Below, in pieces: positions 6,401 through 61,052 of a stretch of DNA of 64,000 nt. Origin of the DNA: Selaginella moellendorffii (taxonomy: Eukaryota; Plantae; Lycopodiophyta); the NCBI RefSeq assembly GCF_000143415.4, contig NW_003314350.1, positions 124,001 through 188,000 on the forward strand. The letters run 5' to 3'. The translations under genes were made by a program, and so were the position numbers. The notes beneath the pieces were generated by a model. The model made no database searches. It had not been told where the DNA came from and worked only from the letters and a program-made list of their open reading frames with translations. Within the stretch, counting starts at the first letter, position 1. Each line of letters begins with the position of its first letter.

Positions 6401-7199
6401 ATGTTACAAATAGTTTTGGCTCTCTTTCTTATTCCATTATCTGTTTTATCTCAATCACCTCCTAATGGCACTAAAATAGTTAGCATTAGAAACCAAGTTA
6501 ATGTTACTATCCCTGATATGTGCTTATATGTAGCACCTGTAAGTTTTCCAAGGAGAATAATTTGTCCACAGTGTTCAAGACAGGTGATTATGTTAAATAT
6601 TTCATTTTATTTTCTTGAGTTCTAAAATTTTCTTTGCTTAGTGTTCTTATAATATCAAAGTAAATGAAGCAAGTTCTGGAGCTTGCATATCAAGCTATCC
6701 TATTACAATTGGTATTTATGAAGATTTTTCATATTATTTTGGACAAACAACAGGAGGTTCTGTTTCTAAGGAAGCTTTCCGTAATGAATTTCAAAGTGGA
6801 TTAACTGTTCAAGGACAATGCCTTGATTTCTGTTCATTAAAAGTTGAAGTTTATGATACTAGTTGTTCTTATTATATTGGAAACATAGTTGTCTCTGGAA
6901 ATAATATTACAAGGACATTCAATCTAAACAGAAGATTAACTCCAAGAGGGAGAATATATGATCGCAGATACGACAGTTCATATTCAGACCAATGCTATCA
7001 GTTAAGCTCACCTTTGATATATGAGATAAGTTCAAATTATATAAATCCATTGGAAAGCTTAATTCCCAGGACACTTGAAAACTCAATAATTTTGGGGAGA
7101 AGATTAAGGATGGTAGATATTGGTGATGTCATGGTAGAAATACCAAGATATTGTGTCTATGATGAAATGAACTCCACACTAATATGTACATGTGACTAA
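6401..7199 (+). CDS. Orphan secreted Cys-rich protein, ~246 aa, 2 exons (6401-6583, 6642-7199)
   Basis: Signal-peptide-like N-terminus (MLQIVLALFLIPLSVLS). A 58-bp GT..AG intron joins in frame to an open 185-codon second exon ending ICTCD*. Confidence 0.75.
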
Positions 7200-24790: not shown

Positions 24791-25724
24791 CATATACTAT
24801 TATAAGTGTAATTAAATTTTTATATAGAATTGACTCAATTTTTAACTCACTCTCAATTCTCTCTAGATTTAAATAATGATCCCAAAGAGATCTCACTACT
24901 AATGATACTAGTTGATAAATGATTATTTGTTCAGTTTTTGGTTGGAAAACCAAAGGTATTAAGGGAAACTAGATTAAACATAGTTTTTAAGTCTAGGATA
25001 CATTCTATCAATTTTAATATTAATTATAATAATACAAATGGTATATTTATTATCAATAACTAATAATCAAATGAAAAAATATTTCAGCTCATCTTTTAGA
25101 CTATTTAGATTTTTTTTTGAGTGGGTTTTGATTTTGCCACTCAAGGAACTTAAGTTTCATATATGTTTCAGAGTATTTTGTATTTTAAATAATTTTTAAT
25201 AAAACGAATTTTAGAAAGCGTTCTATGAATATTTCTTATTAAAATTAATTAAATATAAAATATATGCTCTAAATATTGTAATATAATTTTTACAAATAAG
25301 AAATTAATAAATAAAACTTACTTCTTTTATTTTTCATTAAGATTGAGAAGAGTGGGTTCCCTAAAATACTACCTTGATAGAGGTGATATTGTATTAACTG
25401 CCAGATCATCAATAAAGCTGAGATAATTTTGTCCATCATCTTATTATAGTATTTTAATTCTTTAAAATACATATTGACACTGTTGTTACAAGTTAAGTTT
25501 TATATAATATAAACTTCTTTAATTATATTTTCTAATTTAGCCAATTGTTAGATTTTAAGAAAAAATCTTAATGGCTAAGTTACAACTTAAAAACCTTTAA
25601 ATGTGTGTAAGGTAGTAATTTCAAGTCATTTGTGTGGTGTCATCTACACAAAGTTTTGCCTTTCATAATCTTGAATGACATTGATTCACCAAGCTTAAAT
25701 CTTATTTTAAATCATTTAACACTT

Positions 25725-26604
25725 ATGTTTGAAATAATGTTTTTAATATTTTTGATATTATTCATAAAATTTACTATTTCAGCTATAAATTATAGTGGAA
25801 AAAATAGTATGACAGTTGAGAGTGTTAATTTAATTATTCTTGCTATTGAACTAATGATTAATATCACTGAATCTGGAGAGTTACCAAAAGGTCAAAGTAT
25901 GCAATATGATTATACAATACAAGATTATATATATGGTCCTTTAAGCATGACAAATCAAATATGGATTTATAGTTCAAATGGAAAATTTATTGGTACAACT
26001 TGTGGAGCAAATCTTGTTGAATATGAACACGATGATGGTGATAATGTAAGACATAGATTGACTACTCTATTAAATTTATATCGTAATAATATTCTTAATT
26101 TACGTGCAAGATTTGTTAGAATAGTGTTTGGTTCTTATGCTATTGAGTTTATGGAAAAACATTCTGCACATAGATTACCACAAATTCAAGATACTATATC
26201 CAATAATTTACATGATTGTAGAATTGATCTCACTACTTTAATTAGTAATATGCCTTACAATTCCTTAAAAGCTACTGAATTTTTATTATCACCAAATAAT
26301 AAAGCTTATTTATATTTACATTTAAATTGTATTCTTTCTTTATATGTAAGAAATGTTATAAAATGGTATAAAGGATCTTCAAATTTTAAAAACTGTGAAT
26401 TTAAGATAGAAATGGATGGGAATATTGATGGTTTGGTCTCCTAATATATATTGTAATAAGAAGAGAAATTGTGATATAGGAAAAACATTTCTTTCTCTTC
26501 AAAGTGACTGTAATTTGGTATTATATGAATCCCATCAGAAAACATTTTTAAAACATCCTAAATTGAAGGTATTGTGGGCTTCAAATACAAACCCATGTAA
26601 TTAA
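25725..26604 (+). pseudogene. Secreted protein with C-terminal bulb-type (GNA) mannose-binding lectin domain, frameshifted near 26425
   Basis: Signal-like MFEIMFLIFLILFIKFTISA. Lectin motifs EMDGN, LSLQSDCNLVLY and VLWASNT are split over two frames. Confidence 0.7.
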
Positions 26605-43392: not shown

Positions 43393-44325
43393 ATGGCAGA
43401 TCCGCAATCTCCTCCTTTGACTCTAGAGCAGCAGTTGGTACAATTGCTTGATGCTATGCGCTTGTAATTGAACAACCAAACTCAGTTGATGGCGGCGTTC
43501 ACGGCACGTGGTACAACTCCTCCTGCTCTTGGTGCTAATCCTCGCGTTCGGCCGGAGTTCTTTCGCGGGAATCCTGGGGATGATGTGTACCATTGGTTCG
43601 ATCACTTCACGGTGATTGCCACATATCATTCTTGGGATGATGCTCGACGTTTGCGTGAGTTTCCCATGTGTCTCCAAGGGACGGCGTTGCAGTGGTACAA
43701 TGGTTTGAGCGCAGCCACTCGTGGGGATTGGAGTGTTCTCCCGGACGTCTTCAAACGCGCCTTCGGACATGCCGATGATTGTGATGATGCTTTCCAACAA
43801 TTGCATCGTCTTCGCCAAGGGCCATCTGAGTCAGTGATGCAATTTGGCGTTCGTTTCCGAAGTCTTTTGCTTCGTGCGGAGCCAAATATGTCGGAGCGGA
43901 TCAAGCTAGGAATGTTGTGGCCAGCACTTCGTCAAGATCTTGTCGGACTTGTGCATGCACTTGCTCTTGCCACCCTTGATGATGCTCTTCGCTTGGCACA
44001 ACGTTATGAGACGTCGCCTCTTCCACTTCTCGCTGCACGTCCTTCCGCTCCACTTCCTATGGGTGATGGTCCTATTCCAATGGAGGTTGATGCTGCTGCT
44101 GCTCGAGTCCAAGGACAAGCGCGAGGACGTGGTCGTGGCCGTGATGTTCGCTGCTGGGCGTGTGATGAAGTTGGTCATACTTATCGGCGTTGCCGTCGTT
44201 TTCCGGATTGGCGACCTCTATTTCCTGGGTGGAGACCTTGGCGTCAGCAACGTCCCGTGGGTGCTGCTGCAGTGGAAGGTCTGGACACTGAGATGCATCC
44301 GGGAAACGAGGAGTCGCGCGAGTAA
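43393..44325 (+). CDS. gag: Gag, with a premature TAA at 43465
   Basis: PEFFRG, ALQWY, LRQGPSESV and the zinc knuckle CWACDEVGHTYRRC. Confidence 0.9.
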
Positions 44326-44364
44326 TGGAGGGACCTTGCGCGAATAAATCAGTGACCCCTCCAT
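44301..44364 (+). promoter_or_regulatory. Predicted -1 ribosomal frameshift signal (G GGA AAC + H-type pseudoknot)
   Basis: In-frame slippery heptamer, 6-nt spacer, 9-bp stem 1 and 8-bp stem 2. The -1 frame is pol. Confidence 0.75.
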
Positions 44365-47300
44365 CTTTCTTTTGGGAGTATCATCAAGGGGTTCACTCGG
44401 CACCGGTTCATCCCGTGTTTACTTTCCAAGCTCGTTTTTATAACAAGAGGTTTCCTATTATTCTCTCCGTGTTGGTTGATACAGGTTCGAGTTTATCTTC
44501 TATTGCTCGACCTGTTACCACACGTTGTCGTCTACACTTGCGTCATGCGACGGAACCAGTTTTCATTCTTTATGGCAACGGCCGTACACATGCATGTGCA
44601 CGGGATGAGGTGGACCTGGTTGTGCGTGTGGGCGATCTCGAACTTGAGTTGCAGTCGTTGCGGGTGGTGCCAAGTCAAGCTTTTGACCTCATTCTTGGTA
44701 TGGATTGGTTGCAGGGCAATCATGCCAAGTGTGACTTTGAGGCTTCTCCCCCTTGTCTCATACTTCCTTATGTTTCATCCATTCCTCTCACTTCCATACC
44801 TCTTCGTCCCTCTACTTCTACCTCTGCTTCCATTACTTTTGTTCCCCCACTCTTTCCTTTTGTGTTTCCATCTTGTTCTGCTTTTCCCTTTTCCGATCCC
44901 TCCGACGATCTTTGTGTTGCAGCAATTGACCGGCTCATGAAAGAGTATTCTGATCTCTTTGAATTTGACCTATCGTCTGGGGCCAAGATTGCCACACGTC
45001 ATCCGATTCCAACCGGGGATGCTCGTCCAATCAAGGTTCCTGTTCGTCGTCGGTCACCTAAGGAGATCAAGATTTTACGAGCCAACGTCAAGGAAATGCT
45101 GGAGAAGGGTGTTATTCGGAAGTCGCGGAGTCCTTGGGCATGTGAACCTCATCTTGTGACGAAGCCTGATGGGAGTATTCGTTTCTGCATCGACTATCGC
45201 CCGTTAAACGAAGTGACGATCCCAGATGTGTATCCTCTTCCTCACACTGCTGATCTCTTAGATCGTCTGGGGCGAAGTCGTTGGTTCACCAAGCTAGATC
45301 TTGCTTCTGGGTATTGGCAAGTACCAATGGCCGAAGAAGATATTCCTAAGACTGCTTTTCGTACACCATTTGGTTTGTACGAGTTCTTGGTGATGCCGTT
45401 TGGTTTGAACAATGCTCCCGCAACTTTCCAGCGGATGATGGACGAGGTTCTTTGCGATATGCCGGAAGTGACTGCTGACTTCATTGATGATGTCTTGATC
45501 CACTCGGAAGGGATGTGGGAGGAGCACGTTCGTAATGTTTGTAAAGTGTTGGATCGGCTACGGGATGTTGGTTTAAAGCTGAAGCGGTCAAAGTGCGTGT
45601 TTGGGTCCAAGGACACAACTTATCTTGGGTACCGTATTTCTCGTGAGGGTTTGCAAGTTGATCCTGACAAACTTGTGGCTGTTCTAAAGTTCCCTACTCC
45701 GAAATGTGTGAATGATGTGCAACACTTTTTGGGTAAGGTGCAGTATCTCGGTCGTTTTGTGGATCATCTTTCCGATCGCACTACACCATTGCGAGCGTTG
45801 CTGAAGTCATCAACGTCATCTTTCATCTGGTCTCCGGATTGTGAGCGGGCGTTCGTGGATCTCAAAGAGCTATTGACGACTCCTCCGGTTTTGGCATATC
45901 CTGACTACACTCGACCTTTTATTTTGCGCGTGGATGCTTCTGACATTGGTCTTGGAGGTGTGTTGATGCAAGAGAGCTCGAGTGTGCCTGGTCAGCGCCA
46001 TCCCATTGCATACATAAGCCGTACATTACAACCAGCGGAGATGAACTACTCCACGACGGAGAAGGAGTGTTTAGCAGTAGTCTGGGGTTTCGAGAAACTT
46101 CATGCATATCTACATGGTTCTCGGACATTACTTGAAGGTGACCATGCTGCTGTTACTTCATTATTGAAGCGGAAGAACCTGGTTGGTCGTACGGCTCGAT
46201 GGGCTTTGAAGCTTCAGATATATGATTTCGATGTTGTTCATCGCCCAGGGAGTTCTATGGCTGATGCTGATGCCCTTTCTCGAGCTCCTCTTCCTTCTCC
46301 ACTCACTTCTCATGTTTCTGACGAACCTATTGTTCCAGCGTCTGTGGATTTTCTAGATGAGGATTCTGTGCCGTCGGCGGTTGCCGTCCTTGACATTCAG
46401 TGTCCACAGGGCGCAGAGCAAGATCTACCTTCTCTTGATGAGGTTCGCGAGGCTCAAACGATTGAGCCGTGGATTCGAAGGCTTCGAGATGGGTTTGAGA
46501 ATCCTGCATCACTTGCTGATGACTTGCCTTTCCGGCATTTACATTCTCAATATCGCCTTGAAGATGGCCTTCTTTATTTTGTGGGGACGGATCCTGATGA
46601 TCATTTACGGTTGGTGGTGCCTTCGGTGTTTATTCCGCGGTTTCTCCATGCCTACCATGATTCTCCTGTTCTAGGTGGGCATATGGGACACCGTCGTGTC
46701 ACCGAGAAGCTGCGCAGGTCTTTCTATTGGCCGGAGATGCGACGTGATATTATCCGGTATGTGCGTAGCTGCGTTTGGTGCCAAGCTCGTAATACTCCCC
46801 CTTGTGCTGCGGAAGGACGGTTGGAGTCAATTGCAGTTTCCCGTCCGTTTGAGTTTGTGGCGTTTGATCTTATGGGACCTTTTCCACGATCGACTGCTGG
46901 CAATGAGTATGTTATTATTGCTTCTGACTACTTGACTCGTTGGGTGGAAGTTGGTGCTCTTGCTAGCGCCTCTGCAACTGCTGTTGGATACTTCCTCCTC
47001 AATCGAGTGGTGTTCCAGCATTCTTGTCCAGAGCGGATTCTTTCGGATAATGGTCCTGCATTTATGGCTGAGGTATTTCATGTTTTGACATCTCGGTTGG
47101 GAATACGCCACACTTTTACGAGTGCTTATCATCCACAATCAGACGGTCTGGTGGAACGGCTCGTTCGGACATTCAAAGGGGTGATTGCGAAGTATGTGAA
47201 CTTTCAGCATTCGGATTGGGATGGTTATTTGCCGTCTCTTCGGTATGCCTATGTCACAGGGGTGCAGAGTTCTGTTGGTGCTTCACCATATAAACTTCTA

Positions 47301-47399
47301 TATGGTCATGATCCAATTTTACCAACAGAGCTGGGTTTACCTTCGTGATTGCCACGAGCTCCTGATGCTAGGTCATGGGATCAGTATTTGACAAAAGCT
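44325..47399 (+). CDS. pol: Pol (PR-RT-RH-INT), premature TGA at 47346, interrupted by an insertion
   Basis: LVDTGS, FIDDVLI, VDASD, HHCC zinc finger, DDE core (SDNG, HPQSDGLVER). Confidence 0.96.
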
Positions 47400-48529
47400 C
47401 TATTTCGTTAAAGTGGGATTTATTCAGTAAAATGGGACTAGGTACAAATTTTCAAGTATTTGAAAATGACGTGAAATTATATGTTTTTTGTCCAGGGGCT
47501 AGACATATCTGGGGCATGGTGACTAGCGCGGTGACCTTATGTCCAGACTGAGTCCATCTAGTTGTATAATAAATCTCATTGTCAAGGTGAACAAGCCGAA
47601 TCTGAAGCTAAAGAAAAGCGATGGCATGCGCGCACACACTATTTGTTTGTTCATTGAGCGTGTGGTGAGCTTTCCAAGATGAACATCATTCCTATTAGCC
47701 AGACATATAACTTAATGGTGAGAACATTTAGATATTATTCAATGTTATCTTTTTCTAACGAATCTAATTGTGAAGGTGTAGCAAGAGGCATTGCTAGTCT
47801 GGAGAAGTCATTTAACTCATTTGACCCTTAGTGTATTTTCATGAAACTAAATAACATTCATATTATTAAGGAATTTCTCTAGTACCTTTTTTTTACGACA
47901 TAGAGGCTTGCATTTCTTTCAAAGGTGATTTAGTAAAAGGCCTGAGGGCACATGCCATTCTATTTCTCAGACCGGTATTAAGATATACTAGTGCAAAGGG
48001 AAAAAGGTATTTGGTGATCAAGTAAATGGCATGAGGGCACACGCCATTATAAGCCTAAGCGCTAGTGGACACCTCCTTTTTGGTACTCTCAGCGGTACTA
48101 TCATCCTTCTCCGGGTCAGTTGTTTTGCTTTGGATTGTTGTCTCTGACGTTACTGGGGCGTTCTCGATAGTTGTTAATGTTGCCGTTTGTTCAGAAAAAT
48201 GATCACCTGGAGTATAGTACGGGGAGTTTGGAAGACTTATATATTCTACATCTTCACCTATCTCCTTCTCCGTCTCCTTTTCTGCCTCACTTACAGATTT
48301 TGTGCTTGCCATGAGACCGCTCTTCACCCTAAAATATGGAGTTCGTTGTGTTATAAAAGGAAACCAACACACACGCTGCAAGGGAATGATGGTACATAAA
48401 GCACGTAAGCCCACAATATGGGTTTATGTGCCATTAATATGGGCCACACGCCATATTATTAGATTTATGCACGTGTGATTGGTAAATACATATGTCACAT
48501 CATCTTTGTTTTACCTCACACACTATATC

Positions 48530-51500
48530 AAGCCTCCTCTGATTCAGATTCGGATTGTTCACCTTGAAATAAAATACATTAGAAACTTTGTAAAGGAATA
48601 TTAATGAATCTCACCTTGAACCCGAGTTATGAATGCTCTTGCTGCATCTCTTGCATGGTCTGGCAAGGTGATGGTGGCACTCTGCTTCCGCATCCAACCA
48701 TGCACAACATTATCCACCGATATGCTCATGCTGGGATCCCTTGGATTCAGCACCCATCTCTTTTCTAGGCAATCCTTCGTATATCCGGAACTTGGCTTGA
48801 ACCACTCCACAGTTACATTGAAGGAGTTAGTTTCCGCGTCCTCCTCTGCATCAGTGATGCAGCGCCCCACCCATATCATTTGTTTTTTATTACTGGGTCT
48901 GACAAGCACGACCATTCCTTTGCAGACCTGTACTGGATTGAATGCTGAATCCGGCTTCTTGTTCCTCGGCCCACAATAGTGATCCTCAACATCGTTATCT
49001 GTCACTGCATTTCCAGAGGACATTGTTCCGTTACTATCTGGTGCTCTGGGTTCTGGCCAAAAGGACTCTTCCAATTCTTCATATACAACCGGCCCATTTT
49101 GGATAGCAGATATAATCTTCTCCCAGTATTCGAGCAAAGGCTTGCACCTCTGAAAATAGGATTCTCCACCAAACACCAACCCCCTCTTCCAGAAGGCAAT
49201 ATGCTGTCTAATCCCGGCCACTATACTTTCCTGGTCTTTGAGTCCATCCGGGTGCATCGGCCGTGGGGAACCCTGAGGAATCATAGGTTCCCCAGTTATG
49301 GGATCTCTCTTGAAGAGTTCAATGCCGTCCACTGGCAGCCACACTGTGTCCCATTCTCTCATCTTGTACCTCATCACTGGAGCACCGTCACACATGCTGA
49401 AATGAAACTGAAGAGGCTTGGAGTGGCCAATCAGCGTTTCGGATCCATCCCTGATGTAGCCTCTTACAAACCCCTTAAAGTCTGGAACCTCTGTCAGAAG
49501 TGCAGCTTCAACAGTGCCTTTGATGCAATTTTGGAATTCATCGTAGAGTTGTGGGAGGGTGAGGACATTGGATCACCGGAGGGACTCTGCCAGGTGACTG
49601 AACATGGCATCGACGTCTTCATGAGTGTGCCCAACCATGAGAAAGCCAAGTGTAACCGTTTCAAATATGCCTTTGGCAACAAGCATCGCCAAGTACGCGA
49701 AGACGTACATGTTTTTGTTCTCACTGCCAGCATTGTCTGTTTGGAGCAGAAGATGGGGTGGAAGGCCACATCGGCCGCAAGAACTTCCTTGAGATTCTGC
49801 TTCGTTTGGATGAGGCTGTGCATTCACCGGGCGACCAGCCTCGTCGGAATGGCATGAGGCCTCACGTGATAACCCTACAATCTGACGGCCAACATATTCA
49901 CTGGGATGGCATGGGGCCCCACGCGATACTGCAAGCCTTTGCTCCTCCTCCAGCTGAACCCTGTATGGGGTTCGATCGACAAGGGCCTTATGCAAGGGTT
50001 GGCCGTTCAACTCAGTCTGCGCACTTTGCAGAGACCTTAAGTGTTTTGCTAGGGACGCAATCATCATGTTTGCACCCCCGCCACCCCATAGAGGTACAAA
50101 GAAGTTCCCATAGTTCTGGGCACCATGCCCATGAGCGATTATGCCAAACAGAGACACAGGCAGCTGCATGGATGAAGAGATTGCCTTGGGGGCAGGATTG
50201 AGTCGAGGTAAGCACGTCTTTTTCTGGTCCATTTTGTCGTGGATGATGCAGAGGTAAGAGTCAGGTCTCTCCATGGAGAGAATCCTGTTATGATAATATG
50301 CAGTCCTGCAGCTTCTCTGCTCGATGTTGTGGTCGAGCCGCCTTCTAACCAACGTCTCTCGCTCTTGAGCGCTGCAATAATTCTTCGACAAAGCCATTTT
50401 GATAGCAGTGCACTCGTCACACTTTGAAAAGCTGGAGTACTTTCCTATACTCACATCCCTGAATCTGTTGCTCCACAATCTACTAAATCTAGATTGGCTC
50501 AGCTTCCTGTAGCCATTACTCTGGAGTTCCCGATTCACATCTTCCAATATGGCCCCCTTGGTATACATGGAAGGGAGAACTCGTTGGGTGTCTCGTGTTC
50601 CATCTTCCAAGAGGCGGGTTTTATGTGGTTGCTGCTCGCTACATGTCTCGACAAACCTCTTGAAGATTGCCTCTCCATATACAACATGACCCCTAGTTTT
50701 GTGCGTACCGTCGTTCCCATGGATTGCCTGTTGAACCCTTTGTTCCTCAAACTCAGTTTTGATTCTGTAGAATGTGGTTCGAGGGACTCCATAAATGATT
50801 CTCCATGCCTTCATGCAGACCAAACCCCTCTGGAAGACCATGCCCCCCACCTGATGTTCTGAAGCATCAACAGATGACCGTAATGCCTCATACACAAAAT
50901 TGCGAGCTGCCTTCCAGGACAATGTCTTGTATCTTGCTCTCTCCTCTTCAATAGCATCCCAATCAGCATGTTGACAGCACCTCCTCTTGCAACAAGTAAC
51001 TGTCGAGACCATTCGAACCTCCATCGCCATTTTCTGCCTTTTCGGTTCGTTGCTCAGATCCCTTTGGCTGCGCTTTAGGAAGGTGTACTTTCTTTTCCCA
51101 TGAAGAGATGTTCTGTCATCAGTTGTAGTGGTGTTTGATTGTGAATCCTTCACATTCTCAAACACTAAGTGCCTCAATTTCCACCGCACAATGCTTCCAA
51201 TAGTCAGACTGTTTTCTTCTGTGTCAACAACCTCTAAAATCGCAACTCCAATATCATCCCAGCCCAATTCTTGATTAGCAACCGCATCTCTTGGATCGAC
51301 AACTGTGGCTAAGCCCTCAGCTACCACCTCCCCCTCGGGGTTGTTTAGAAACACTTTTGCCTGAATCCATGTAGCATGGTTCTTAAGATCCACGGAGGGA
51401 ACATGCGTCGCACTTGCGCTGTCCCCAACATCTGCTTTCTTCTGAAGATTTTTCAAGGCAACAACAACATTTACCCCGACGACCATCTCTCCTCGTTCAA

Positions 51501-51669
51501 TAGCGACCACATTCCCATCGAAGACAGTCTCTACTGATACAGCAGCATTGCCTTCCCCAAGCCTTTCACAGTGTATAACAAAGTTCCGATCCATAGACAC
51601 AAGGGTCCCTTTTGCAACTCTTTTCCCACCATTCAAAATGTAAACCTTTTCCCCAACCCTGAAGTCCAT
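48530..51669 (-). CDS. Sola-like DDD transposase, ~1020 aa, with one in-frame nonsense codon (TGA 49573-49575)
   Basis: FSKCDEC, HDKMDQKKTCLP, LQTDNAGSENKN, FLMVGHTHEDVDAMFS. The frame continues past the stop into ORF 48601-49395, with a likely short last exon GEQSESESEEA*. Confidence 0.85.
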
Positions 51670-52609
51670 TCTGAAAGTGCAGAAAAGAAGTTAAGACCAT
51701 ACAAAAAATGATTGGAGAATGGCCTAAATCATAACATACCAAACAACCTCAATAGCATGAGGCCACATGCCATTATTCAAACATGCTATTGACACCCACG
51801 TGAAATTTCGCATTCACAAAATTGGCATGAGGCCTCATGCCATCTTGATATACACACAGCTGCAGGCAAGTAAAAACATACATGACAATACGCTAGCCAT
51901 GAAATTGCAAGGGCCCAAGATGGCATGTGGCCTCATGCCATTTCTAAATGTGGTCCTAAGCCATTCCATGGTGAACATACCAGGAAGCACAAGTGCCAAA
52001 TATCAAGAGGAAGCGGTAGCCACACCAAAGACAGTGCCGCTCGCAACACCGCAACTACTCATAGCGCCGCTCGCAACACCGCAACTGCTCGTAGCGCCGC
52101 TCGCACAAACTGCCACTCGCATAAACTGCCGCTCGCAATGGCGCTCGCAATGCCGCAACCGCTCGTAGACGCATAAACCACAGCCCACAACGCCACTTAC
52201 ACAAGCAGCGCTCACTGCGCTCAGCGGAACCAAAAACACGGCGCACAAAAATGATAGACCTAGGAATGAGTTCGAGAATTCAAAAATAACACACGCTTGA
52301 ACGTCACATCAAATCCTCTGACAAACCAGATCTTATGATTCCTCTGACAAATTTCAAACTGAGTAGCTTCTAGACTTTGCTGTCGGAGGTTGAACTTTGT
52401 CACATCATGTCCTTGCCTCGATCCAGCTGTGCCATGTCAGTGATTCGAACTTTGCCATGCCATGTCAGCGATCCGCGCCAAGATTATTCGCCGTGTAAAG
52501 GAATAATTACGCTGTGTGTGTACGTCCATTTATGGCAATATAAGGCCACACGCCATTCAAAGAATAATGCTCGACATAAGGCCACACGCCATTCAAAGAA
52601 TAATGCTAG

Positions 52610-53935
52610 TCGAGCATTTTTTGGTGCATTTTTGGGTTCAAAATTGCATGAGCCCACACGCTATAAAGTTTACCTGTACCAAAAATAGAAACAGCTTTAT
52701 TTACTTGGGAATTTAAGTGGTTGAGGCATTTTTAAACTTACAAACACATGCCCTACTTACATTCCTTTGGTTGCCTAAAATTCAAAAATATTATAAACCT
52801 TTCTTTTTGCATTTTCAATGTTTTCAATTATGGTTTTTGATTTTCGTAGGACCAGCCTAGTAATCTATTTGCATCCCGTCATGTTTATAACTAGCTTTCG
52901 TTCGTCCCCTTCGCTAGCCTGAGATACATCTGCTCGGCATCTGCCTCTTACAGCATTTGCCCAGAAAGGGCATCTTTCTTCACGCAGCATTTGCCACATG
53001 TTTAGGGTTTAGGGTTTAGGGTTTAGGGTTTAGCAATTCAGTAGCTTGATAAACATGCAAATACAGAACTTGATGCAAAATCCTTTGATATGTCACAATG
53101 CCCCTAGGACCATAAACACATTTCAATAGAGAGGGTCCTTTCATTTCATAACTCCTTACGTAGATCTTGGTGAAACCAGAGTTAGTGAAGTTAGTTTCTT
53201 GTGATCCCGCATCTGATTGTGATGTCCCTTTGTAGTTTCGATGGAAAGGTCAATGCACACCAAACTGTGAAATCTTGGAGCAAAATAACGGTCGGATCTA
53301 TGGCAAATGCCCCTGAAACATTGTAAGGCTCGTGTGGTCTCATGTGGTGTCCGATTGAGATGCTTCTTTGCAGGGTCATCAAGAAAGACATTGTATACCA
53401 TTCTGTAAAATCTAGTTGCGATCTAACGGTTGGATCTCCAGAAAACTCAAAAAAATCTCGCACGTGTCAGAATATCCTAGGAATATACTCCTATGTGCCC
53501 CTGAAAATGGCATGCGGCCCCACGCCATTCAAGAGATAATGCCAGATGACGCCGAGAATTTTTTGGTGCATTTTTTGGGTTCAAAATTGCATGAGCCCAC
53601 ACGCTATAAAGTTTATCTTTGCCAAATAGAGAAAAGTTTATCTGTGTCATGTGAGGTAGTTACAGTCCTTTGTGCTCGGCATCTGCCTCTTGCAGCATTT
53701 GCACTGAAAGGGAATTTTTCTCCATTCAGCATTTGGCCCTGAAAATGGCATGCGCCCACACGCCATTCAAGGAATAACGCCACAGGACGCCTGGATTTTT
53801 GGGTTTAAAATGTTTAGGGTTTTTTGGGTTTTTTCAAAATATTTTGGGTCCAACGTTTTTTGGGTTTCTTTGGTTCAAAATTGCATGAGCCCACACGCTA
53901 TAATATTGATTTGAGAGAAAAATAGAAACAGATAG
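52610..53935 (+). repeat. Three direct copies of a ~70-bp unit (~52615, 53560, 53860) and a second duplicated unit (52930/53672) in the transposon's central non-coding region
   Basis: GGTTCAAAATTGCATGAGCCCACACGCTATA occurs three times and TGCTCGGCATCTGCCTCTT twice. Confidence 0.85.
53001..53033 (+). repeat. Interstitial telomeric repeat (TTTAGGG)4
   Basis: Seen directly in the sequence. Confidence 0.95.
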
Positions 53936-54616
53936 AATTTCTTTATTTAGCTGAACATCTGCCATTTTTGGAAATACAAGATGCTTTGGAATATCCAATC
54001 ATGCATGGTATAAATATAGCGAGGGTATTAAATGATATCCCAATCATGATCTTTCTTTTGGATTTCGTGTGCATGCAGTCCGAGGAATGATGACGTTGCG
54101 GATTTCTTTTGGATTTTGCGTGCTTGCATGCGCGCGGCAATCCAGAAATTAATGGTGGCGCCCAAGTCCGAGGAATGATGACGTGGCGGGATTACCAACC
54201 GTTGTGACATTTCGCGCGTGTGAGGTTAGGTTTTGCATTTTGCTTTGTACTCGCGCTCGCGCTCGCATCACACTCGCGCTCCCGCTCGCATCGCGCTCCC
54301 ACTCGCGATCACGCTCACTTCTCTACAGGTTTCTCGTGTGCATCGGCGTCCACTCGCGCTTGCATCACACTCGCGCTCGCATCGCGCTCGTGTGCATCGG
54401 CGTCCACTTCAAGACACACTCAGTTTGTAACTTCGCCGCCAACTCCGCCGCCCACTCCACCACCCACACGCAGCCCACTTGGCGTCCCGGGAGATTTCAG
54501 CACCACTCTCCAACTGTAAGTGGCAGAGTAGCCTTGCTGCTACGATCCGCTGCACACACAGTGCACATTCGCCAGCGAGTCCGGCCTCGATTGTCACGGC
54601 CTCCATTCGGCTTCAA

Positions 54617-57600
54617 ATGGTAAGTCTTTTAGACCAAGTAGAAAATGGCATGAGGCCACATGCCATTCAGTAGCAACATTGGCATGCACCGATTGGGCTC
54701 TCGAGTGCAGTCCGGTTACAGATGGCGTGTAGCCTCACGCCATCTTAGGATGCAGCCTCAAGACATCTGATGCAGTGGTGAATGGCGTGTGGCCTCACGT
54801 TATTTCCAGCTGCTAGCTTTTCATCTGTCAGCTCTAATTGTTGTGCATTTTTGAACAGGCGAGGAATTGCGTTCTTCTTCCAGCCACTGTCAATGTGGAT
54901 GTAGAGAAGGGGGAGGAGCTCACCAGTTGGACTTTCGGGATGGAAGGCAAGGATCTGATGCTGTACAACACAGATGGTGGGAGAAAAGAATGCATGGGGA
55001 TCCTCATCCAAGTGACAGACACTCCATGCAGTTCCATGCAAGAATATGGACTGGCACTTGTGGTAGAGACAGCGTCCGCCTTCAAGATCCACCTTGCACA
55101 TCCTAGCGGCTTCCCGGAGGGGGGCAGCGGCTATGAGGAATTCCTAGAGGGAGCTAGGGAGAGGTTGTCTAGGAGGCCCACAATTTCAAAGACGCTGCGG
55201 GTCTATGAAGATCACATGGAATCCACGGACCTCACCTACGACGATGTTCAAAAACTATATTCCAACATTGAGCCGTTGAGAGTGCCTCCAGTTTGCGAAG
55301 CGAAGGGGAAGGGGGTCGATCTGGAAACTACCCCGAAGCAGAAAAGGGTGGTCAAGCTCAAGCCGACGTCCGACTCTGCTGCTCCAAAAAAGAAGCTACT
55401 CGGTGATGCCATTGCCTCGGGTTCGAACACTACACCCACCAAAAAGAAGAGCCGCAAAGAGCAGAAAGAGCAAGAAGAGGCAGCAAAAATCGTCGCAGAT
55501 AATAGTACTTGTTACTATTCCAACAAAGTATATACAATCGACGTGAGCCGTATCGAGATCCAAAGCAAATACAACCACAGGCTAGTATCTGATGAGTGGG
55601 TGGAGAAACTGAAGCAGAAGATGCTGGCAAGTCCAGTAACACCCGACATCGCAGACGTGATCCCCTATTACCGAACAATGAAGGGCGAGACGAGGTTTCC
55701 AGACTTGATCAATAGGAAGGTGTTGGACGATCAGAACATCCGGTTCTATGCCGTCTCCGGGCAGCATTCTATCTTGGCGATGCAACAGATAGTTGTGGAT
55801 ATTATGGTGGGCGAGGAGGTGAAGAAAGTCTTCAAGACAAGAGTTGTCCGCCTGATAAAAGGCAACTCGCCCCTCCGATCTATCATATACATCTCCCACG
55901 CGCAGAATGTCAAGCAAGAAACGTGCTACAAATCGGGTCTGCACGAGACATTGGCACGAACACGGAAGCTCTGGGTTCAACTGAAGAAGCCACAAAAACC
56001 AGGACAAGGACGTGCACTAGCAACTAGCGCCTGGCAGGTAAGCCTCGTTGCATGTGGCATAGCATGTGGCCTCACGCCATTTCCATTGCAGGAATTCTCG
56101 AGTCTTCTCTCGAAAACACTGGGGGTCAATGACACACTCAGCATCCATAACATTCTACTCGCGACAAAAGTTGTTTTTGACAAATGGGTAGATGTGCTAA
56201 GGAGGTACCATGACGGGGAGTTGCTAAACTCAATGGGTGTGGAGGACGGCCGGAAGCCCAATGATTTGAAGCTCAACGCCTTGCGTTTCTCGCGGTCTCT
56301 AGACGACGACGACCTTCTGACAGTGGCTAATGCTCTTCTACGTGGTGAGGTAGTCTTCAACAAGACCAAAATGACTCCCGGCCATATTGTGACATACGAG
56401 GACTTGTGCACGACTCTGAGAGCTCGTGCGCTATTGAAGGATTGGATCTTCGAGCAAGTGGCCGTGGCGAGGGTGAGCATCGACACCACGCAAGAGATGA
56501 TGGAAGAGCTGGACTTGTCAAATGAAGACATCGACGAGTACGTGAAGGGGGCCCCCAAGTTCATCGATCTGCTGCGGGATGCCACGAAAAGTAAAGCTGA
56601 GAAGTTGGATCAGTATCCAAATTTCATTAAGAGGGATGTCGACCGCCGGCTTCAGAAACAGCTCGACCCCGCAGCAGAGGCCTATCGAGAACCTTACCGG
56701 GTATATGTGAATTCGGATGAGGATCAAAGGTGGAGGAGCATTGTTTCCCGCGGAGATGAGCAGGTCAAGAACATCTTTTGTGTGATGGACTTCACAAACG
56801 AGGAGATCACTCATGCAGACGAAGTCAGCTCCATCATTGACTTAATGGTGGGACTTGCGGAGGTGGAATCTTCAGTCCACTATATGATCTACGACTCCGA
56901 ATCCTATCACAAGTTCTGGAAGGCCTTGAACGAGGTGAAGGCTCGGTTGAAAGGCAAGGAGATGCGGGAGATCCATGGGATAATGGCTAAGAAGAAGATA
57001 CCGACGAATGTCCGCATCTTCACAGTTGCCCTTGTTATTGGTCCTGCAGTAGAGTGGGACTGGAGTGACTTCCCAGCTTCGTTCAACAAAGCCGATCGAA
57101 TTGATCTGAGGGAGGTCAATTTACCCGTGCCTGAGGAACTGAAGACGGCTATGGAGCTTTCGAATCCAAAGAAAGCTCCAGGTGCAGCATGGGAAATGCT
57201 CAGCTGGGTCTTCAACGCAATAGCGGGTGACTCCAAGGGCAAATGCGTTGTCGAGTACAACTGCGGCGGACTATTCTTTCGAGCCGCACTACTCAAGGGT
57301 GTCCCATGTGTTGCGGTGACAAACTCCATTGAAGAGGTGACTTCAATGGAGCATATAATTACAGTTGCCAAAGAAAAACAGTATCTTCTCTACGAACCTG
57401 GTAAGTACGCACTTTAAGTTTAAATGTTATCTCACAAGCTCTGTATGCAGGAGCGTGGCCACCCCCAGATGCTGAAACGGCGTTAACAGCTACTGATGTT
57501 AGGCCGAGGTCACAACCTGCACAAGGTAAGGTCACGTGAGGCCTCATGCCATTTTGATTATAGATCGTTGTGAATATTCAGACACGAGGACTGAAAAGCG

Positions 57601-60222
57601 CACTGGTGGCGCGTCGAAGAAGGACAAACAGACAAGCAATAGGAAAAAAAGAGGTACAAATTATATTTGCAATGGCGTGTGATCTCATGCCATTCCTTGC
57701 AGGAGACACTTCTTCAAAGGCAAAACAGGCAAGCACCAGCCAAGCTCAAACTGACAGTGGTCATAAAAAGCGAAAGCACGTTGGACAGTCGTCGGGATCA
57801 GAGGCGTTTGATTCGAAAAGGAAGAAGGGCAACGAAAAGATGATAGGTAATGCCTCGCAGTTATGGCGTGTGTGCTCATGCCATTCATTGCAGATCAAGG
57901 GCTGAGTGAAAGGAGCCAGTCACCACCTTCTGACTCAGATTCCTATGGCGGACTCCCCTTCCCCAATCTCAATGGAGAGGTACAATGGATGAGGGATGCT
58001 TTTCAAGTCAGGGCCACGTTTTTCTCATCTCGTCGTCTTCGAAGGGTGCAAGAACGTGCAGAAACCATGTTAAGACAGTCGGGTGAGGATACGGTCCTAG
58101 GTCACGCACTAAAACAGGCTATGGATGTCTTGTATTTTGAGATGGAGACTCGGCCAGATGATTTTTCCAAGATGGTCCTGGAAAAACAAGCAATCCAGCC
58201 TGAGCAGCCTATGGAAGAAATGCAAGAGGGGGATGAGGAGCCAGAGAAAGATAATGAGCAGGAAGAGCAGAAGGACGAAGAGGAGGACAAAGAAGAGGAG
58301 GACGAAGAAGAGGAGGACGAAGAAGAGGAGGACGAAGAGGACTTGGATGGTCCTCACAATGGTGACGATCACAATAACGACGATGATGATGATGACGATG
58401 ATGGCCAGCCTGAGGTGGCCAAAGAGCAGCGGAGGAAGGTCATACAAGACAAACCATCAGGTAAATAATAGTACATCCATTCCTAACCTTTTACCATTTC
58501 TAACATTGTCCATGTAGGTCGCAGAAGAAATGGTAAGTAGAGATTATTCAGTTGAATTAAGATACAAACTCTAGCCTTTAGTGTCGAGGAAGGATAGTGC
58601 CAAGCAAGGGTCGAAACGTATGTCCAATCCTTCAGAATCAGCAGTGCGCCCAAGTGATATCGGTCCTAGTTCCTCAATAGCAGTTGATGGTAAATACAGT
58701 ATAGTCGATTCAATGTGCTAATGAGTTTGTTTTTAGTAGCACGGGAGGATACCATCTCAATCGAAGGGAGATATTTGGACATGCATATGGATCCGCCAGT
58801 GGACTCTACTTGCCTGCAAGAGTCATCAGAGCTGGTGGAGGCTACTATCCATATCAACGCCAAGCAAGCTGACCACGCTCCACTTGATGCTGCCCATACC
58901 ACTAAGTCAATCTTGTCCACGTATCCAACTGACGGTGACTAGGCGCCATTGGACCCGCATGAGGCCGCCCCAGCCGCCGAGCCGGTCGTATCCTCATTTC
59001 CAACGTGTGCCCAATCGTCTGACTACGCGCCATTGGAACCTCCCTACACCGCCCCTGCTGCCTGTTCGGTCATGTCCACTTTGCCAACGGAGGCACCAGC
59101 TGAAATGGCGTGTGATCACACGCCATCGGAACCACCCCATGCCACTGTTGAGCCAGTTGTACCAGAGTCTACAGCTGAAATGGCATGTGCCCACACGCCA
59201 TCGGATGCGATTGACCCCACATTGCAGAGGAGAGTATTTCCGCCCTTCACGTTTCCTCGACCAAAACCCTCTGAACGACCATCGGGAGCACCATTCGCTA
59301 ATATTGTAGATGGTAAAATTGACTTGTACCATTTTTTATGCTAACGCATTTCATTTCAGAGTCACGGCGAAAGTACTGTATCGTTTTTGATCTGAACGGT
59401 GTCCTTTTCTCCCATGAGCGTGGCTCGTCCTCAAATGTCACTGCACCCTCCAAAGCCTGCGGTCGCAAGTTGGTCAAAAGAGACAGATTCACATTAATCA
59501 CACGGGAGAAACTGCGGGATCTAATAATGACCATGCGACACTTAAAACAGAGGGCCGGGTTCAATTTGCAATTGGGAGTTTGGACATCCATGATGCGCCA
59601 CAATGCATTAACGTTGCTACAGATGATGCACGATCAGACGCGAGTAATATTACCATTTGACTTTCTCCTAACGCAGGAGGATTGCTTGACTATGGTCCAT
59701 GTGAGGGGTAGCAAGCCCATTTTCGTCAAGGCAGAGGCTGTAGTGATGAACCGGACTGCTAGGTCAAGTGAAATCCTCATCATCGATGACTCGCCGATTA
59801 AAACTGCAGCGAACACGCACACATATGCAGTGCACCCCATCTCTTGCAGTATGGAAACTAGGGAGAAGAAACCGTATGTTCTGGGGGACCTTGCAAAACG
59901 GCTTGAAGCGATGGTGATAGAGAACCGGCCAGTCCAGGAGGTGGCTGCAGAAATCAACCAAATGGCAGATGGAACGGTATATCAGAAGCCATTTGATCGG
60001 ACAGACACCAGTCATCATTTATGGCATGTATATTGTCTAGCCAAGCACTATCCGCATCTCCATAATCTGCTCAACCGGATGGGTTCTTCGACCACTGAAC
60101 ATGAGCGTGGACGTATTAGAGAAGAGATGGCATTACTATTGGGTTTAAATCCTGATAGTGTGGAGAGTGATGAAATTCCAAGATTATTGTATAGGCGTTG
60201 GAGGCAAAAAATAACAGTCTGA
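54617..60222 (+). CDS. Transposon cargo gene, multi-exon: ParB-like domain + degenerate DNA MTase-like domain + acidic linker + FCP1/NIF-type HAD phosphatase domain (in-frame TAG at 58940)
   Basis: ATG|GT at 54617 joins 54859, and there is an in-frame intron at 56038-56091. A chain of phase-1 GT..AG introns from 57401 to 59359 stays in frame. Motifs: FYAVSGQHS; KCVVEYNCGG..RAALLKG..CVAV; VFDLNGVL, VWTSM, IIDDSPIK. Confidence 0.7.
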
Positions 60223-60648
60223 GATGGCATGTATTTATTTAAAAATGTAACTTATTATGGCATGGGGTTCCATGCCATTGTATTAATATTAAAAGACAAT
60301 TCTTTGAGAGGATTTGCATTATACTAGAAGTGTTACAGCATGTTATTGGAAGTCTACGAAGTTGTTTTATTAATAAGGGGAAAGTAAAGATTGAATGGGG
60401 ACTTGGGCTCCACCTAGACTCGGAGCAACTGAGCCAATATTAAAAGGATGGAAAGAAATTGGACGACGATGACAAGGAGAAGAGAGAGGTGAAGCAGTGA
60501 GAAGTGATTGAGTAGACATTTCCTTGTTTAAAATAAAATGGCATGTGCCTCAATGCAGTTGAATTTTGTTATATTTATATACTATATAAAGGTTTGGAAA
60601 CCTTATTTTACAAGTGGGATAATGACAATTCCCACTTTAACGAAATAG

Positions 60649-61052
60649 AGCTTACAAGCATTCTTCCACTTGTCCGAGCAGAGTCTGCCGAACACTTAGG
60701 CCGCGTACAAGTGGGACAACAACGGCGCTACAACTCCCATCATCGTCCACCTGCGGAGTACAAAGTGGATGATTTGGTGTTAGTCCGTTTTCCCCATCTT
60801 ACGGTACGTGGTTTATCTAAGGGGCTCCTTGCGCAGTGGAAAGGACCGTATCAGGTGTTGCGGCAAGTTGGACCGCAAGTTTATGAGGTTCGGCATGACG
60901 TTCAGCAGGCCGATCCTCCGGAGATTGTGCATGTGCAGCGGTTAAAACACTTCATACAAAGGGATCAGGAGCAATTAATACCGTCTACAGATCCGCCGAT
61001 GCCTCCTCCTGATGTTCCTCCAGATCCCGGCCCATCTACAAGAGAACCCTGA
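60649..61052 (+). CDS. pol: C-terminal remainder of the gypsy integrase (GPY/F domain)
   Basis: YKVDDLVLV, WKGPYQV, VHVQRLK. Confidence 0.9.

Follow-up and report, generated by a model that had tools for sequence, protein, structure and literature searches.

What can a protein that joins a ParB-like, a methyltransferase (MTase)-like and a phosphatase-like domain do for the plant transposon that carries its gene? This question is raised by a locus of Selaginella moellendorffii (assembly GCF_000143415.4, contig NW_003314350.1, positions 124,001 to 188,000; this whole stretch of 64,000 nucleotides is hereafter called the window), where an accessory gene is located between the terminal inverted repeats (TIRs) of a Sola-like DNA transposon of 13,259 bp, head-to-head with the transposase gene. 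We tentatively propose, with a confidence somewhat short of even, that the accessory protein could be a mostly non-catalytic DNA-binding factor reading the dyad sequences of its own element, with a VANC-like or end-bridging role. The best clue to its ligand is an array of 25 dyads confined to the element, which had escaped the initial annotation of the gene. That annotation had spoken of a cargo protein, and the location of the gene inside a TIR element beside a transposase agrees with this.

47395..60653, no strand: TIR DNA transposon (inverted arms, ACAA on both sides, Gypsy pol region to the left and right)
47395..47421, + strand: left TIR, ACAA target duplication just before it
60627..60653, - strand: right TIR, ACAA target duplication just after it
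47620..60560, no strand: 25 dispersed 24-bp dyads, core ATGGCRTG-N6-CAYGCCAT (matrix scan at >=10 bits, pattern search)
54617..60222, + strand: accessory gene, 11 inferred exons, 1,642 codons, one internal TAG (GT-AG model)
48601..51690, - strand: transposase gene, DUF7869 (Pfam PF25273, E 1.3e-29), motifs HDKMD, TDNAG and GHTHEDVD
43468-47348 and 60654-61052: Gypsy long terminal repeat (LTR) retrotransposon with gag-like and pol open reading frames (ORFs), broken near the integrase end by the element

The dyads start at the following positions:

47620, 47936, 48025, 49848, 49905, 51751, 51821, 51919, 52570, 52642, 53506, 53585, 53744, 53879, 54644, 54721, 54781, 56058, 57530, 57671, 57862, 59104, 59179, 60256, 60537

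At a threshold of >=10 bits, the matrix scan found 25 dyads in the element and 0 in the 50.7 kb that surround it in the window (mean of the resampled control, 0.12); as 17 of these sites had served to train the matrix, the count inside the element is partly circular, which does not apply to the confinement. By pattern search, 22 matches were obtained for 0.07 expected, every one of them inside the element. Predicted coding sequence is largely avoided (21/25 dyads outside it), and, on the inferred splice model, 7 of the 9 dyads of the accessory gene are intronic, while introns account for 12% of the gene length (binomial p 1e-5). The array reaches within about 230 and 100 bp of the two element ends and clusters upstream of the transposase ORF, and the TIRs themselves are devoid of dyads. 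None of the 24 deviating arm positions is compensated in the opposite arm, suggesting that the sequence and not a hairpin is conserved and pointing to a dyad read by a protein; a function as RNA hairpins was rejected on the same count. Four intronic dyads of the accessory gene finish 8 to 10 nt ahead of the acceptor AG. The orientation of the dyads at 56058, 57530, 57671 and 57862 places a branch-point-like CTCAY ~20 nt before the acceptor AG, and dyad duplication may have helped to create these short introns.

The TIR arms are 27 nt each and 96% complementary, and they are bordered by the 4-bp target site duplication ACAA. The element interrupts the Gypsy pol region, leaving a pol ORF on its left and integrase-end domains on its right. 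A contig of DNA run X3 matches the element to 60654 and then continues with 50 unlike letters, and the depth of this run is zero over the right flank that the element has in the window; hence, the X3 sample contains a copy located elsewhere. The transposase contains three Asp-bearing motifs, which we take to be a DDD triad, with DUF7869 as its sole Pfam assignment and one in-frame stop at 49573-49575. According to the excerpts of published work on which this and the following comparisons rely, the Sola superfamily has a DDD transposase, 4-bp target duplications and moss among its hosts (PMC10741241). As judged without a transposase tree, the element is Sola-like, sharing with this superfamily the TIRs and, presumably, the DDD-type motifs, the 4-bp duplication, a size within the reported range and a seed-free plant host; the same excerpts mention neither a second gene nor an internal dyad array, both of which are present here. 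On the minus strand, the transposase bears two dyads in an in-frame stretch between Asp motifs 1 and 2 (49840-49960), which may be an unrecognised intron or a dispensable insert, and an acidic, Thr-rich ORF of 122 codons downstream of it (48055-48423, minus strand) may represent the last transposase exon.

The accessory gene was modelled as the following exons:

54617-54619, 54859-56037, 56092-57400, 57451-57525, 57564-57653, 57703-57846, 57894-58460, 58518-58532, 58582-58689, 58737-59312, 59360-60222

The model starts with the ATG at 54617 and contains 10 GT-AG introns, the last 8 of which (after exon 3) are all in phase 1, and the seven inner exons past exon 3 are multiples of three in length; this uniform phase and these lengths favour a real exon chain. 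Intron 2 is backed by homologous ORF calls stopping at the same W-x-V point, and one intron of 38 nt is doubtful. The initial annotation had quoted motifs that we retrieved in the ORFs 54838-57417 and 59323-60222, and had linked them by an in-frame exon chain: the 11-exon chain indeed joins the domains, but a premature TAG at 58940-58942 (codon 1,232 of 1,642) breaks the frame in this copy. When chains were enumerated with introns of 40 to 300 nt only, the best ones retained one stop as well. Runs X1 and X3 carry a C at 58940, and their linker region shows in-frame insertions of 9 nt and 3 nt. The window copy shows 38 differences from run X3, and 28 of them are A>G or T>C, a bias compatible with C-to-T decay after methylation, provided that X3 is nearer to the ancestral state. 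The element copy of the window is decayed, with a stop in each of its two genes. The splicing that was to be confirmed by RNA found no support, as no spliced read covered the accessory gene in two RNA runs (X8 and X9, ~12% of each read); X8 reached at most ~2 reads in depth near the 5' end, some of them within intron 1, and X9 had none over the gene. Contigs of X1 cross the predicted introns ungapped and may derive from DNA, and they were excluded as evidence on splicing in either direction.

The predicted protein is divided as follows, where HAD is the phosphatase superfamily of the NIF domain:

55480..56034, + strand: ParB/sulfiredoxin (Srx)-fold domain, SGQHS motif (AlphaFold model, Foldseek, VIA, conserved columns)
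56092..56685, + strand: all-helical domain, conserved in homologues, candidate DNA-binding part (model residues 1-198, alignment A2)
56686..57390, + strand: beta-class N4C/N6A MTase-like domain, without catalytic PP(Y/F), motif I degenerate YNCGG (structure, homologues, motifs)
57894..59312, + strand: acidic and Pro/Thr-rich low-complexity linker exons, TAG at 58940-58942 (ORF list, exon model)
59374..59820, + strand: NIF/FCP1-like HAD domain, motif I DLNGVL, motif IV IIDDSP (Pfam PF03031, E 5e-6)

On its AlphaFold model (pLDDT 80.6), the first domain is a member of the ParB/Srx superfamily, as the initial annotation had recognised. Foldseek returned three matches at E<=0.001, Noc (7.5e-5) and two ParBs, and the top 8 of 21 rows of the VIA structure comparison all belong to this superfamily, i.e., PadC (Z 9.7, root mean square deviation [rmsd] 2.9, 100 aligned residues), KorB, a ParB-N protein, SerK, sulfiredoxins, SbnI and Atu1540. 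Among viral structure models, 17 match at E<=0.001, mostly ParB-like by name and one a modification methylase, and the homologue P0010 has a structural match to ParB_N in the Atlas. The ParBc and N6_N4_Mtase profiles anticipated by the initial annotation were not retrieved, with 0 Pfam families at E<=1 for the window ORF; the support came from structure and homologues. Six residues of the fold (G, H, R, N, R and P) are invariant in 16/16 rows. By motif position, the box-I arginine is found in 14/16 rows (one K, one gap) and the P-motif 3 asparagine in 16/16, and the motif G[QL]H[ST] occurs in 16/16, with Ser or Thr after GxH and the GxxR arginine absent. CTP binding in Caulobacter ParB needs R60, R103, R104 and N136 (PMC8367383); mapped by motif and not by superposition, R60 and N136 are kept and R103/R104 are lost, arguing against a canonical CTPase. 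In comparison with the CTP clamps ParB, Noc and KorB (PMC8367383), the protein thus shares the N-terminal fold, the box-I arginine, GxH and the asparagine by motif and a dispersed palindromic site nearby, and it differs by the Ser/Thr in place of the GxxR arginine, by the absence of ParA and by its fusion to MTase-like and NIF domains. In a tree of the domain, the window row stands on a long, unplaced branch that is uninformative about origin.

By features, the nearest named Atlas clusters of P0010 residues 45-225, the counterpart of 55480-56034 in the window, are fungal DUF3723 (score 0.95, 16/30 hits), other neighbours being a cnidarian cluster (features) and a molluscan cluster (structure). 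DUF3723 is a conserved cargo gene of Starship elements (10.1101/2021.12.13.472469) and may be a ParB-fold domain; we found no open-licence literature joining DUF3723 with ParB.

The helical domain, modelled jointly with the MTase-like part (pLDDT mostly 60-90), occupies a place that we take to match that of the helix-turn-helix (HTH) domain of ParB. The model of the MTase-like part is weak (mean pLDDT 58, about 25-60 in this domain) and gave nothing with Foldseek at E<=0.001. In the VIA comparison with 48,161 chains, this low-confidence model nevertheless ranked beta-type amino-methyltransferases in all top 10 positions (Z 8.0-9.7, unrelated folds from 7.9), the best being M.MboIIA (Z 9.7, rmsd 4.5, 163 aligned); beta-type enzymes also filled the top 15 rows of a second VIA comparison. 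PF01555 was matched by the Riccia protein P0049 at E 5.8e-4, below the cut-off, and P0028 residues 195-450 led to a PF01555-bearing Atlas cluster set (score 0.90, family on 39% of members), which we take as a lead only. There is thus moderate support, from models, for a beta-class MTase fold with permuted Rossmann order, the catalytic strand preceding the cofactor-binding motif. The catalytic motif (D/N/S/T)PP(Y/F/W) was found in 0/7 proteins checked, its sole remnant being an invariant Asp at the end of the catalytic strand, and the S-adenosylmethionine (SAM)-binding FxGxG motif is degenerate: EYNCGG in the window, DFFSGG in Riccia, DVFACG in Adiantum and DINTGG in P0028. The initial annotation had noted an MTase-like end lacking DPPY/SPPY; the lack of the motif extends to the homologues and the fold is supported by VIA, with the reservation of the weak model and the empty Foldseek search.

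The C-terminal FCP1-like domain with DLNGVL, also described initially, is confirmed, with PF03031 at 26.7 bits for a cut-off of 21.8 in the window and 61.3 bits in P0037. The DxDx(T/V) motif is replaced by DLNGV in the window, DLNGL in 6 fern proteins and DLDDI in the lycophyte protein P0014. The first Asp and IIDDSP are retained, and Asn takes the place of the second Asp, both in the window and in 6/6 fern proteins showing the motif; phosphatase activity appears doubtful from these residues.

A HMMER scan over the full set of 1.84 billion representatives yielded 21 matches at E<=0.001, from which an RTX-repeat protein (P0002) and a repetitive protein (P0016) were dropped as chance. Among 20 clusters looked up, the six named by organism all belong to seed-free plants (Selaginella, Diphasiastrum, Adiantum, Calypogeia and two Riccia), and the best protein match of the accessory protein is from Selaginella moellendorffii itself, at 28% identity. 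The domain order is common to lycophyte, fern and liverwort proteins at ~20-30% identity, and the Adiantum protein P0037 (1,246 aa) and the Riccia protein P0049 (1,064 aa), both annotated gene models and not transcripts, hold the ParB-like, helical, MTase-like and NIF domains in one predicted chain. As two independent genomes show the domain order of the window, the single-chain architecture is supported, in line with the initial annotation. The N-terminal 140 residues of the accessory protein had no detectable match among the fetched homologues. In Adiantum, 10 clusters share 85-99% identity with the query, and one of these has 20 members; the fern family is multicopy and young, as expected of transposon cargo. 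The Adiantum protein P0040 has an extra N-terminal part (residues 1-350) with no Pfam or PDB match and with an RWLS motif that we take to be that of hAT-type transposases; if this identification is right, the fern family is carried by elements with a transposase of another superfamily.

The other sequence searches added no relative. The word-index protein search retained 0/7,987 candidates for the window ORF and 1/7,992 for alignment A2, itself a member of the alignment. Searches of the PDB gave nothing meaningful (the one row at E<0.001 being a repeated cytochrome fusion), and for the window no significant match came from NCBIfam, PADLOC or PHROGs, where the ParB-like family phrog_1033 stood at E 0.22. 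No sequence relative was found in the viral contigs, prokaryote genomes, phages or plasmids searched, and the metagenome locus L001 was dismissed as a chance match inside a bacterial glycosyltransferase gene. The prokaryotic origin claimed initially is therefore suggested by the prokaryote type of the ParB and MTase folds and not by any prokaryotic or phage sequence relative in these collections. ParB-fused MTases forming N6-methyladenine or N4-methylcytosine are common beside phage terminase genes (PMC6536676; PMC4738411), and phage fusions of this kind are the likely source of the domain pair. Both have a ParB fold N-terminal to an amino-methyltransferase fold, and the plant protein differs from the phage fusions, as excerpted, in having no catalytic motif, added helical, acidic and NIF parts, introns and a location in a plant TIR transposon.

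We propose a model in which a phage or prokaryotic ParB-MTase fusion would have entered seed-free plants and acquired a eukaryotic-type NIF domain. A dimer would read the two 8-bp half-sites of the dyad through the helical domain or the target-recognition region of the MTase-like domain, and the conserved pocket of the ParB fold would bind a nucleotide or phosphate and govern dimer contacts, in a role other than that of a canonical CTPase because the GxxR arginine is missing. Occupied sites across the element would shield it from silencing by host 5-methylcytosine or unite its ends for the transposase, and the element would thereby be kept open for expression or transposition, while the acidic linker and the NIF domain would contact host proteins. 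Such a DNA-binding role is favoured by the fact that both prokaryote-type domains come from DNA-acting families (Foldseek, VIA), and by a ParB pocket that is invariant (16/16) while the MTase catalytic motif is absent (7/7). A precedent is provided by VANC of the Arabidopsis VANDAL elements, which recognises a short motif present in the introns, the intergenic stretches and the non-coding terminal regions of its element and removes the methylation of this element (PMC5735166). In both cases, an accessory gene of a DNA transposon is associated with a short motif repeated across the non-coding parts of its own element; nevertheless, the VANC motif is a 9-bp asymmetric one in tandem arrays, versus a dispersed 22-bp dyad here, its transposase is Mutator-like and that of our element of another type, and binding and demethylation are established for VANC (PMC5735166), whereas for the accessory protein they are proposed.

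Several observations weigh against this proposal. No VANC likeness was detected (the main ORF matched 0 Pfam families, and none of the named matches is called VANC), nor any HTH or other DNA-binding fold match for the helical domain in the searches made with the joint model. Dyad binding by the accessory protein is something that we infer, and the transposase or a host factor could read the dyads; the co-occurrence of gene and dyads is known from one element alone. The A/G and C/T arm variation lies at a CpG site, and part of the uncompensated variation may be methylation decay. Moreover, the window copy looks methylated and decayed, judging from the 28/38 transitions and the stops in both genes, and almost no RNA reads of X8 and X9 fall over the accessory gene. 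These last facts would also suit an accessory gene that was captured passively and does nothing for the element, as would the loss of canonical catalytic residues in all three domains; we regard this as quite improbable, given a domain order kept from lycophyte to fern and liverwort despite such low identity, the invariant ParB pocket, the element's own dyad in the introns of the gene and in-frame insertions and deletions in other copies that suggest selection on the frame. Alternatively, the dyads could be sites of the transposase comparable to subterminal repeats, and the accessory protein a co-factor binding DNA non-specifically or binding the transposase, as second proteins of Harbinger and CACTA elements aid their transposases. 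The approach of the dyads to both ends and their clustering upstream of the transposase ORF would be explained, but most dyads lie far from the ends, in introns and the inter-gene spacer, and the TIRs have none, making this rather unlikely in our view.

Improbable as well is a chromatin or RNA polymerase II (Pol II) C-terminal domain (CTD) reader or phosphatase, whose NIF domain would act on phosphoproteins for transcription or target choice, the dyads being unrelated. The Pfam score of the NIF domain, its first Asp and IIDDSP and the DLDD of P0014 speak for this function, and the Asn in place of the second Asp speaks against it, as do the dyads, which it leaves unexplained. As the DLNG variant is a known uncharacterised NIF subgroup, the family name gives no indication of the CTD; it was from this name that the role put forward initially, on the Pol II CTD or on phosphoproteins, derived, and nothing was found to tie the domain to the CTD. 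A possible parallel is the suggestion by Iyer et al. that the inactive MTase domains of DIRS1 may be PCIF1 mimics contacting RNAPII (PMC4738411). The protein could also be a live enzyme, with its ParB/Srx domain working as an ATP/ADP-dependent kinase, an NTPase or a nuclease, or its MTase-like domain modifying DNA through a non-canonical motif. Models for this exist in SerK, SbnI, Osa, GmrSD and DndB relatives, and SerK, SbnI, SspE, BrxU and DndB-type proteins are among the structural neighbours; the GxH motif, two arginines and the asparagine are invariant, as is the Asp at the end of the MTase catalytic strand. However, the arginine after GxH (R104 of Caulobacter, for CTP binding; PMC8367383) is Ser/Thr in 16/16 rows as mapped by motif, the PP(Y/F) motif is missing and the SAM-binding motif degenerate, so that we consider a live enzyme very unlikely. 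A more daring and clearly unlikely possibility is a eukaryotic ParB/parS-like system, in which a phage-derived fusion would load as a clamp at the 25 parS-like dyads and spread to bar host methylation, DUF3723 of the Starships belonging to the same family.

Two other groups of eukaryotic MTases deserve comparison with the accessory protein. The bdelloid N4CMT (PMC8885841) and the Marchantia DN4MT1 (10.1101/2021.02.12.428880) have the permuted beta-class fold in a eukaryotic host, and the N4CMT structure 8s9n was at rank 8 (Z 8.2) in the VIA list of the MTase-like domain; as excerpted, they are active host enzymes of bacterial origin (TSPPY in DN4MT1) with neither ParB nor NIF, whereas the domain here is motif-less and transposon-borne. 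The inactive MTase of DIRS1 is likewise a dead enzyme carried by a transposon, and the chlorophyte-type Dam joins a ParB-type HTH to a eukaryotic MTase (PMC4738411). However, both belong to the M.EcoKI/M.TaqI-like group and not to the permuted beta class, and the Dam fusion is one to the ParB HTH and is reported, in these excerpts, from chlorophytes and chytrids only (PMC4738411).

The spacer between the divergent genes (52000-54600) contains duplicated blocks of 60-80 bp around dyads, as well as short tandem repeats rich in GC and a brief stretch of telomeric repeats of the plant type. Upstream of the accessory gene, a 40-nt stretch (54513-54552) collects hundreds of RNA reads that match it in part, and DNA contigs of very great depth; expression was rejected as the cause of this peak, which reflects cross-mapping of abundant unrelated reads, and the stretch is presumably a captured 3' end of 25S/28S rRNA. 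The window as a whole has the character of land-plant DNA, with a high gene density, short introns and PPR genes. Two AT-rich ORFs of 185 and 277 codons (6642-7199 and 25611-26444) show no obvious plant family by eye. Comparison with Rfam gave one chance match and nothing else.

We found no description of this family in the open-licence literature, nor any such literature on DUF7869; subscription journals, Repbase and supplements, including the eukaryotic MTase architectures of PMC4738411, which possibly bear on novelty, were outside the search. The papers on N4-methylcytosine in bdelloids and Marchantia, as excerpted, deal with active host enzymes without ParB (PMC8885841; 10.1101/2021.02.12.428880). 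Transposon accessory proteins and transposon-borne dead MTases are already known kinds.

Our analysis sheds light on a prokaryote-type ParB-MTase module residing in the mobile DNA of lycophytes, ferns and liverworts and largely missed by Pfam, and it offers a structural lead on DUF3723 of the fungal Starships. Detailed knowledge of how transposons escape silencing by their host exists for few proteins, VANC foremost, and the element described here pairs a candidate protein with a candidate 22-bp site, which makes the idea testable by a single binding assay. Should the ParB/parS-like reading be true, ParB-fold proteins would constitute a self-protection module common to large eukaryotic DNA transposons. 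If our preferred reading as a dyad-binding factor is true, the accessory protein would be a factor of a novel kind, by which a transposon of seed-free plants protects or regulates itself.

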